A stretch of 64,000 nucleotides of DNA, from assembly GCF_001677475.2 (NCBI RefSeq), contig NZ_CP015229.1; one strand, given 5' to 3'. The DNA comes from Escherichia coli (GTDB lineage Bacteria; Pseudomonadota; Gammaproteobacteria; Enterobacterales; Enterobacteriaceae). Under the pieces are notes generated by a model. The model worked only from the letters and a program-made list of their open reading frames with translations. It was not told where the DNA came from and ran no database searches. Positions 2,192 through 48,499 of the stretch are shown here, one piece after another. Numbering within the stretch: the stretch's first letter is position 1; each line of letters opens with the position of its first letter. A program made the translations under genes and the position numbers.

Positions 2192-3565
2192 GTGGATCAT
2201 TTGCCTATATTTTGCCAATTACGCGATCGCGACTGTCTGATTGTCGGCGGTGGTGATGTCGCGGAACGCAAAGCAAGGTTGCTGTTAGACGCGGGTGCTC
2301 GCTTAACGGTGAATGCATTAGCGTTTATTCCACAGTTCACCGCATGGGCAGATGCAGGCATGTTAACCCTCGTCGAAGGGCCATTTGATGAAAGCCTTCT
2401 CGACTCCTGCTGGCTGGCGATTGCTGCGACGGATGATGACGCGCTTAACCAGCGCGTCAGTGAAACCGCTGAAGCTCGTCGCATCTTCTGTAACGTGGTC
2501 GATGCGCCGAAAGCCGCCAGCTTTATTATGCCGTCAATTATTGACCGCTCACCGCTCATGGTAGCGGTCTCCTCTGGCGGCACCTCTCCGGTTCTGGCGC
2601 GCCTGTTGCGTGAAAAACTTGAATCACTGCTGCCGCTGCATCTGGGTCAGGTGGCGAAATATGCCGGGCAGTTACGTGGTCGGGTAAAACAGCAGTTCGC
2701 TACAATGGGTGAACGTCGCCGTTTCTGGGAAAAACTGTTCGTTAATGACCGCCTGGCGCAGTCGCTGGCAAACAACGATCAGAAAGCCATTACTGAAACG
2801 ACCGAACAGTTAATCAACGAACCGCTCGACCATCGCGGTGAAGTGGTGCTGGTTGGCGCAGGTCCGGGCGATGCCGGGCTGCTGACACTGAAGGGTCTGC
2901 AACAAATTCAGCAGGCAGATGTGGTGGTCTACGACCGTCTGGTTTCTGACGATATTATGAATCTGGTACGCCGCGATGCTGATCGCGTTTTCGTCGGCAA
3001 ACGCGCGGGATACCACTGCGTACCGCAGGAAGAGATTAACCAGATCCTGCTGCGGGAAGCGCAAAAAGGCAAACGCGTGGTGCGGCTGAAAGGCGGCGAT
3101 CCGTTTATTTTTGGCCGTGGTGGCGAAGAGCTGGAAACACTGTGCAACGCGGGTATTCCGTTCTCGGTGGTTCCGGGTATTACCGCAGCTTCTGGTTGCT
3201 CTGCCTATTCGGGTATTCCGCTCACGCATCGCGATTATGCTCAGAGCGTGCGCTTAATTACCGGACACTTAAAAACTGGTGGCGAGCTGGACTGGGAAAA
3301 CCTGGCGGCAGAAAAACAAACGCTGGTGTTCTATATGGGACTGAATCAGGCTGCGACTATTCAGCAAAAGCTGATTGAACACGGTATGCCTGGCGAAATG
3401 CCGGTGGCAATTGTCGAAAACGGAACAGCAGTCACGCAGCGCGTGATTGACGGTACGCTCACACAGCTGGGCGAACTGGCGCAGCAAATGAACAGTCCAT
3501 CGCTAATTATTATTGGTCGGGTTGTTGGCCTGCGCGATAAACTGAACTGGTTCTCCAACCATTAA
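2192..3565 (+). CDS. cysG: Siroheme synthase (uroporphyrinogen-III methyltransferase / precorrin-2 dehydrogenase / ferrochelatase)
   Basis: 457-aa ORF with GTG start ([10 protein letters not shown]...), Rossmann GGG motif near N-term; length matches CysG. Confidence 0.9.
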
Positions 3566-3574
3566 TTTAACCAG

Positions 3575-3597
3575 GGCCAGAGAATTCTGGCCTTTTT
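3575..3597 (+). terminator. Intrinsic terminator downstream of cysG
   Basis: ggccaga-gaat-tctggcc hairpin immediately followed by ttttt. Confidence 0.6.
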
Positions 3598-3819
3598 CGT
3601 TTACAACTCTCTTTATATATTCAGCAGATAAAAATATAACTCATTAACAAAAATCATTTGTTTTTGTCCCGTTATATTCACCGTTACAGCGAATTACAAA
3701 ATTAAGTCATTCGCTCACTGACGCCAATTAAATATTCCTGTATCGTTCTAAATGAGCAGTCTGCTTATATTCATATAATCAATGAATATTAATTAATATA
3801 TAATACATAGGGAATGTAA

Positions 3820-3987
3820 ATGAACAAATTTATTAAAGTTGCACTGGTAGGTGCAGTACTGGCTACGTTAACTGCATGTACTGGTCATATTGAAAACCGT
3901 GATAAGAACTGCTCTTACGACTACCTGCTGCACCCGGCAATTTCTATTTCTAAAATCATTGGCGGTTGCGGTCCTACTGCACAGTAA
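3820..3987 (+). CDS. yhfL: Small lipoprotein (55 aa)
   Basis: ATG at 3820, 55 codons, TAA at 3985-3987; signal peptide with lipobox LTAC (MNKFIKVALVGAVLATLTAC...); below the ORF-track length cut-off; preceded by AT-rich promoter-like region. Confidence 0.6.
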   Translation: MNKFIKVALVGAVLATLTACTGHIENRDKNCSYDYLLHPAISISKIIGGCGPTAQ

Positions 3988-4028
3988 GTCTCTGACTGAA
4001 AGCGGCTAACACCGGTTTAATTGCCCGA

Positions 4029-4060
4029 CGCCCTCTGGATTTTCCGAGGGCGTATTTGTT
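4029..4060 (+). terminator. Candidate terminator downstream of yhfL
   Basis: cgccctc...gagggcg inverted repeat followed by a T-rich tract. Confidence 0.4.
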
Positions 4061-4231
4061 TCTACGTCCTTCTTGCTCCCCGCCCGTAAAAATATTTTCA
4101 CTTTAATTTCAATTGGATAACTACATCCATTAGCCACAGCGCGATCCTGTGCGAAATTTTGTGATCTTCCTCCACATTACATAACATCATATGTTGTTAT
4201 ATTCATCATGCATTGTCATGTTACCTTTTAA

Positions 4232-5620
<1,389 letters not shown>

Positions 5621-47414: not shown

Positions 47415-48308
47415 ATGAGCAAAAAGCAGAGTTCCACCCCACACGATGCGCTGTTCAAACTCTTTTTACGCCAACCGGAGACGGCACGCGATTTTCTTGC
47501 GTTTCATTTACCGGCACCCATTCACGCGCTCTGTGATATGAAAACCCTCAAGCTGGAGTCGAGCAGCTTTATTGATGACGATCTGCGTGAAAGCTATTCC
47601 GACGTGCTGTGGTCGGTGAAAACGGAACAAGGACCAGGATATATCTATTGTCTGATTGAACATCAAAGCACCTCAAACAAACTGATCGCATTTCGCATGA
47701 TGCGTTACGCCATTGCCGCAATGCAAAATCACCTTGATGCCGGATACAAAACGTTGCCGATGGTGGTGCCATTGTTGTTTTACCACGGTATTGAAAGCCC
47801 CTATCCCTATTCGCTGTGTTGGCTGGATTGTTTTGCCGATCCCAACCTGGCAAGGCAGCTTTATGCCTCTGCATTTCCGCTGATTGATGTCACCGTCATG
47901 CCTGATGATGAAATCATGCAGCACCGACGCATGGCGCTGCTGGAGTTAATTCAAAAACATATCCGTCAACGCGATCTGATGGGGCTGGTAGAGCAAATGG
48001 CCTGCTTATTAAGTAGTGGATACGCTAATGACAGACAAATCAAAGGGCTGTTTAATTACATCTTGCAAACCGGCGATGCGGTACGTTTTAACGATTTTAT
48101 CGACGGCGTTGCCGAACGTTCACCGAAACACAAGGAGAGTTTAATGACTATTGCGGAAAGATTGCGGCAGGAAGGGTTTCAGAAAGGTATACGTACCAAC
48201 GCCCTAAATATTGCCAAAACCATGCTGGATGCCGGAGTCTCTCTTGAGGACGTTCTGCGATTTACCAGCCTGACGGTTGAAGACCTTGCTGAAATAAATC
48301 ATCAATAA
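47415..48308 (+). CDS. rpnA: Recombination-promoting nuclease RpnA (YhgA-like, PD-(D/E)XK transposase_31 family)
   Basis: 297-aa ORF recognised as YhgA/RpnA; exact start uncertain by a few codons. Confidence 0.8.
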
Positions 48309-48325
48309 CGTAAAGGATGGTTTTA

Positions 48326-48499
48326 ATGACAGATGCAGAAAGAGAATATCTTATTAGTTACCTGATTGGTTATTTATTGGGTCGACGCCTGGAAGCCCTG
48401 GATATCGCCAAAAGAATGCTGTAATCCTGAGTCCCTCTTGCGGACATCATGCGTTTTACCGGGGTGTCAGAAGAAGAGTTGGCTGCGGCGAGTCAGTAA
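48326..48499 (+). repeat. Diverged, frame-broken tandem duplicate of the rpnA 3' tail (includes a 32-codon ORF at 48326-48424)
   Basis: Nucleotide and peptide similarity to rpnA 48144-48308: atgacagatgcagaaaga... vs atgactattgcggaaaga...; ...LDIAKRML vs ...LNIAKTML; VPLADIMRFTGVSEEELAAASQ* vs [23 protein letters not shown]. Confidence 0.6.

Follow-up and report, generated by a model that had tools for sequence, protein, structure and literature searches.

Conservation of the 55-codon gene yhfL, a predicted DUF4223 lipoprotein gene between cysG and frlA of Escherichia coli

The window that we analysed, a stretch of 64,000 nucleotides of Escherichia coli DNA, carries a short reading frame at 3820..3987 on the + strand, downstream of cysG (2192..3565, with its stop at 3565). 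The frame starts with ATG and runs for 55 codons plus a stop, exactly as a preliminary description of this DNA had given it, and its translation is MNKFIKVALVGAVLATLTACTGHIENRDKNCSYDYLLHPAISISKIIGGCGPTAQ. That description had also named the frame yhfL. Set against the annotated gene, b3369 of K-12 MG1655, the window coding sequence is identical at 168/168 nucleotides in an alignment; it shares the cysG-yhfL-frlA position, and it is annotated in RefSeq, so the name stands. RefSeq calls K-12 b3369, located between cysG and frlA, “DUF4223 domain-containing lipoprotein YhfL” and uses “YhfL family protein” in other E. coli strains, and the gene order nirC-cysG-yhfL-frlA is common to K-12 and KL53. 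We assign the coding sequence from the ORF list, the identity to K-12, a Pfam match and the ratio of nonsynonymous to synonymous substitution (dN/dS). The gene is missing from the ORF track because its 55 aa fall below the length cut-off, as had been supposed; the default minimum of the ORF lister is 60 aa. What needs correction is the 250-bp gap that had been given between cysG and frlA. From the cysG stop at 3565 the distance is 717 bp to the RefSeq start of frlA at 4283 and 666 bp to its longest-ORF start at 4232, that is about 670-720 bp, and 250 bp fits only the cysG-yhfL spacer (254 bp). The two frlA starts correspond to proteins of 445 aa (ATG at 4283) and 462 aa (4232), and longest-ORF tracks therefore overstate the N-terminus of FrlA.

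The protein belongs to a recognised family and the gene is nearly universal in the species. YhfL matches Pfam PF13978 (DUF4223) with 129.2 bits against a cut-off of 27 (E = 5e-38), the match spanning residues 1-54 on profile positions 1-54 of 54. In a search with the coding sequence only, yhfL is present in 5411/5426 complete E. coli genomes, with at least 80% query coverage in 5402 and at least 99% identity in 3900 of the 5426. A 681-bp region around the gene matches 5418/5426 complete genomes, the features beneath the matches being yhfL and cysG; the best identity is 98.4% and most E. coli genomes stand at 90-95%, because a patch at 3595-3670 of the spacer is polymorphic. This patch, right past the cysG terminator, differs from K-12 by several indels and about 20 substitutions, and between about 3671 and the yhfL stop hardly any difference from K-12 is left. 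The window belongs to an E. coli strain other than K-12. Its yhfL nevertheless agrees with K-12 b3369 in nucleotides and amino acids alike, in lying between cysG and frlA, and in its terminator. The gene itself shows no difference; the upstream spacer alone differs, in the polymorphic patch and in the -35-like hexamer of the promoter described below.

Hairpins that resemble terminators had been claimed on either side of the gene, and both are there, each stable and each followed by a T-run. The upstream hairpin (3573..3594, + strand) has a 9-bp G+C-rich stem with a GAAT loop, followed by TTTTCGTTT; it was called by a terminator scan, and its RNA fold of -14.3 kcal/mol (z -3.67) was equalled in stability by 0/200 shuffles. 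It begins 8 nt past the cysG stop, 225 bp ahead of the yhfL start codon, and it belongs to cysG. The downstream element (4028..4063, + strand) is the predicted terminator of yhfL itself, with a stem ACGCCCTC...GAGGGCGT at 4028-4053 followed by ATTTGTTTCT, the T-run past the hairpin being ATTTGTTT. Its fold is more stable still (-20.5 kcal/mol, z -3.78, 0/200 shuffles as stable), and the pattern scan missed it because the apical stem is bulged and extended. In alignment this terminator is identical in K-12 and KL53, and the orthologues of Salmonella and Xenorhabdus have a comparable hairpin plus T-run downstream. With a G+C-rich stem-loop and then a T-run, both hairpins fit predicted rho-independent terminators. 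The one Rfam match at the locus, a sub-threshold one to the enterobacterial sRNA family STnc180, covers 3411-3603, the 3' end of cysG and its terminator, with 17.9 bits against a gathering threshold of 50 (E = 0.73); it is probably a chance match or a diverged 3'-end-derived sRNA. The Rfam search of the locus returned no family overlapping the yhfL ORF.

Signals for expression can be placed in the spacer between the cysG terminator and yhfL. A Shine-Dalgarno-like AGGGA lies in the sequence at 3809..3813 (+ strand), 6 nt before the ATG, and forms the best anti-Shine-Dalgarno duplex, of -5.9 kcal/mol. Comparable elements precede yhfL in Salmonella and Serratia, and weaker ones in Xenorhabdus and Edwardsiella. 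The DNA upstream of the gene is 70% A+T in the window and 68-75% in these four other genera. A consensus promoter scan called nothing upstream of yhfL. Genomic SELEX placed an RpoD promoter, TTAACG-19-TATAAT, together with H-NS in the cysG-yhfL spacer (PMC3946193), and transferring this K-12 promoter to the window by alignment gives a probable sigma-70 promoter at 3749..3779 (+ strand), with a -35-like TAAATG at 3749-3754, a 19-nt spacer and a -10 TATAAT at 3774-3779. The -35-like hexamer is TAAATG here versus TTAACG in K-12 and KL53, and the -10 hexamer is unchanged. A SELEX peak of the RpoS holoenzyme also lies in this spacer (PMC5493296). Putting these reports together, yhfL would be transcribed from an A+T-rich, H-NS-bound spacer that the sigma-70 and sigma-S holoenzymes recognise in vitro. 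Over-production of Nac strongly lowers its transcription: in an experiment with induced Nac, yhfL was the most strongly repressed gene (PMC5217608).

Outside E. coli, the neighbours of yhfL differ in every genus examined. In Salmonella they are bigA and trpS, in Serratia the gene is located upstream of speFL-speF, in Edwardsiella it adjoins a phage-type integrase, and in Xenorhabdus its neighbours are NUDIX and Rep_trans genes, the latter of the replication-initiator type. We therefore rejected gene neighbourhood as a guide to function. The gene has its own terminator and unrelated neighbours in each genus, and so behaves as a self-contained monocistronic unit; the differing neighbourhoods hint at relocation or horizontal movement of such a unit. 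Published work touches yhfL at several points. Two CRISPRi spacers against it were enriched in a Salmonella antibody-agglutination screen, and a Salmonella null mutant had no phenotype in one assay reported (PMC12070745). A table of strain-specific coding changes includes the gene for the host-restricted Salmonella DT2 lineage, where it seems to be a pseudogene (PMC3760250), which indicates that yhfL is dispensable. RT-qPCR has been used to assay yhfL mRNA in Salmonella Choleraesuis (PMC10667801), and another study singled yhfL out as uncharacterised and found its expression to correlate with evolved resistance to antibiotics (PMC4351646). In the literature that we searched, no paper assigns YhfL a function, and nothing relevant was found on DUF4223 or b3369.

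A frame of 55 codons in a spacer of 70% A+T could arise by chance, and for this reason conservation and codon-level selection are needed to establish a gene. A word-indexed HMMER search returned 269 homologues of YhfL, and all among the matches listed carry DUF4223; the named sources are Salmonella, Citrobacter, Cronobacter, Leclercia, Serratia, Erwinia, Mixta, Hafnia, Edwardsiella, Xenorhabdus and other Enterobacterales. In an alignment across 21 genera the invariant residues are M1, K6, T16, L17, C20, G22, N26 and C31, followed by Y33 D34 Y35, H38 P39, S42, S44 K45 and I47 G48 G49 C50 G51, and a set of 87 sequences shows at least 90% conservation at each of them. We then compared codons 1-52 with orthologous DNA from Salmonella, Xenorhabdus, Serratia and Edwardsiella by the Nei-Gojobori method. 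The proteins of these genera are 71-78% identical to that of E. coli. The proportion of synonymous differences is near saturation (pS 0.55-0.88), the nonsynonymous proportion is 0.13-0.17 (pN), and dN/dS is 0.05-0.15 wherever computable; third codon positions differ about 3x as often as first or second positions. This substitution pattern indicates that the yhfL frame is selected as a protein, under strong purifying selection. Support for the predicted translation is evolutionary. As weak negatives on the experimental side, yhfL was not found in the supplementary text, in each case possibly partial, of an E. coli acid-stress Ribo-seq study, of a Salmonella small-protein census or of RiboReport, a Ribo-seq benchmark.

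The answer is the opposite for a second short frame, the 32-codon ORF after rpnA that had been suggested as another gene hidden by the cut-off. The rpnA gene (47415..48308) encodes 297 aa with the Pfam domain Transposase_31/YhgA-like. Relative to K-12, the window carries an insert of about 206 bp (about 48176-48385) past the codons for ...RLRQEG, and this insert brings its own C-terminal tail, unlike that of K-12, together with a stop codon. Downstream, what is left of the K-12-type tail is a stop-interrupted, out-of-frame remnant, the window having DIMRFTGVSEEELAAASQ* where K-12 has ...SKALHIAKIMLESGVPLADIMRFTGLSEEELAAASQ. The short ORF (48317..48424; 35 codons from the first ATG and 32 from the next) runs into this remnant. 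A Pfam search of the ORF gave no match. The insert is shared by 895/5426 E. coli genomes, and beneath it the genomes listed annotate rpnA, once an ISNCY family transposase, and never a separate small gene. With its end in the remnant, no family match and no separate annotation, we rejected the ORF as a hidden gene comparable to yhfL; it is best read as a by-product of the replacement of the rpnA C-terminal tail.

Analysis of the N-terminus supports the view that YhfL is made as a lipoprotein precursor. A signal peptide and an LTAC lipobox had been recognised before, and we find both. We judged the signal by a re-implemented PROSITE PS51257 rule alone. Residues 1-19 (3820..3876, + strand) form the predicted signal peptide, composed of the n-region MNKFIK, the h-region VALVGAVLAT and the lipobox residues L-T-A ahead of Cys20. 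The n-region places K3 and K6 within the first 7 residues, where PS51257 looks for K/R, and has a net charge of +2; the h-region has a mean Kyte-Doolittle hydropathy of 2.45; and LTAC agrees with the PS51257 pattern ([LVI][ASTVI][GAS]C, with the Cys at position 15-35). Among 95 homologues of 50-62 aa, the rule is passed by 94 and the lipobox is LTAC in 85, and an alignment of 87 homologues has L17 and C20 invariant. From these features we infer that the precursor would be lipidated and cleaved. The literature that we searched yielded no globomycin, lipid-labelling or intact-mass record of YhfL lipidation. The predicted mature peptide (3877..3984, + strand) comprises 36 residues from the predicted-lipidated Cys20, with a mass of about 3.9 kDa before lipid and a pI of about 6.9. 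Alignments place the conserved Cys31, Cys50, YDY, HP and GGCG within it, and the window protein has all of these family residues together with C20. Even between Escherichia and such genera as Xenorhabdus and Edwardsiella this mature part hardly varies.

A further question is where such a protein would reside. According to the “+2 rule” of the Lol pathway, a lipoprotein whose lipidated Cys is followed by Asp (position +2) is retained in the inner membrane, and exceptions to this rule exist. In YhfL residue +2 is Thr, hence no Asp stands at the sorting position, and among the 94 homologues that pass PS51257 the residue is Thr in 92, Ser in 2 and Asp in 0. Outer-membrane sorting of YhfL is predicted because +2 is Thr, not Asp.

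We weighed these readings against others. A soluble peptide of the periplasm or the medium, cut by signal peptidase I after Ala19 and lacking a lipid anchor, would agree with the Ala at -1, a residue that suits this enzyme too. Lipoboxes typically have a bulky Leu at -3, a residue that signal peptidase I disfavours there, and in YhfL it is this Leu, together with the Cys at +1, that is invariant in the 87 aligned homologues. Absence of a protein of this kind from a membrane proteome could reflect low abundance or few tryptic peptides. The supplementary text, possibly partial, of an E. coli membrane-localisation proteome, in which YhfL was not found, can also be cited for a secreted peptide (PMC7055658), as can an older annotation that labels yhfL a “conserved secreted peptide” in a table (PMC5493296). 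The current RefSeq annotation of K-12 gives a lipoprotein instead, and 94/95 homologues pass the lipoprotein rule, which leaves a secreted peptide very improbable. Retention of a lipidated YhfL in the inner membrane is a little less remote and still unlikely: it draws on the known exceptions to the +2 rule, against which stand the Thr or Ser, never Asp, at +2 of the rule-passing homologues and two Salmonella papers that give YhfL as a putative outer-membrane lipoprotein, itself a prediction (PMC12070745, PMC3760250).

The most radical alternative is that the frame is there by chance and that the conserved element is non-coding, for example a regulatory RNA, a leader of frlA or a trailer of cysG. 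The shortness of the ORF, its A+T-rich surroundings and the sub-threshold STnc180 match at 3411-3603 are what speak for it. The low dN/dS, the near-saturated synonymous sites and the third-position bias are the reverse of what this reading needs, and on the low dN/dS and the third-position bias we exclude both a chance ORF and a purely RNA-level element. Moreover, the frame, its start, the lipobox and the three Cys residues persist in genera with entirely different genes around yhfL, yhfL has its own terminator ahead of frlA, and no Rfam family lies over the ORF. We consider the probability of a non-coding element to be negligible. The 55-codon ORF is thus, with high confidence, the E. coli core gene yhfL, encoding a precursor of the DUF4223/YhfL lipoprotein family from a stand-alone, monocistronic unit.

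Based on the general lipoprotein pathway, we propose the following as the most likely course for YhfL. The precursor would be exported by Sec; Lgt would put diacylglycerol on Cys20, LspA (signal peptidase II) would cut after Ala19, and Lnt would N-acylate the new N-terminus. LolCDE, LolA and LolB would then probably carry the lipoprotein to the inner leaflet of the outer membrane, given the Thr rather than Asp at +2. Cys31 and Cys50 would more likely than not form a DsbA-made disulfide that closes a small loop. With so few residues, the mature protein cannot be expected to work as an enzyme. The most plausible role, offered here tentatively and as speculation, is to assist or modulate another component of the envelope as a small partner. 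By analogy with LptM, which serves LptD, YhfL might be devoted to one conserved envelope machine as its partner or regulator, an idea that we hold to be doubtful; it might equally be a signalling or toxic lipopeptide.

The gene is an already annotated one, and the finding is correct but ordinary: yhfL has been annotated for decades in K-12 and in thousands of RefSeq genomes, and its rediscovery has little biological impact. Its use lies in showing that a 60-codon cut-off hides real conserved genes, and that conservation combined with codon-substitution patterns can tell genes such as yhfL from leftovers such as the ORF after rpnA. Among the small envelope lipoproteins of enterobacteria, YhfL counts with those that are highly conserved and yet uncharacterised, and finding its function would be a modest gain.

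Lastly, we compared YhfL with known structures and with known small lipoproteins. AlphaFold2 models built from 21 and 87 aligned sequences have mean pLDDT values of 63 and 62, which is low confidence; they contain a signal-peptide helix and a tentative beta-hairpin (residues 22-26 and 31-35), the mature part is mostly below 65, and the Cys50 segment is at about 48. Both models being of low confidence, they lend no structural support to the disulfide or to a fold. A profile search of PDB sequences gave no relative of YhfL. Among known systems, LptM (YifL) is likewise a very small enterobacterial lipoprotein, and its signal peptide and lipobox resemble those of YhfL. LptM resides in the outer membrane, where it helps the LPS translocon to mature, and serves as a model of a tiny envelope accessory factor. 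We rejected membership of YhfL in the LptM family (NCBIfam NF047847), for which it reaches 12.6 bits versus 27.7 and aligns over signal-peptide residues 1-20 only; the mature parts of the two proteins are unrelated. The entericidins EcnA and EcnB and the lipoprotein OsmB are also made as lipobox precursors of about 40-70 residues from stand-alone genes, often regulated by stress or stationary phase. None of the searches brought up a sequence relationship between YhfL and these proteins, its homologues among the matches listed being DUF4223 only, and, unlike EcnA/EcnB and OsmB, its mature part has two conserved Cys residues and no predicted amphipathic helix.
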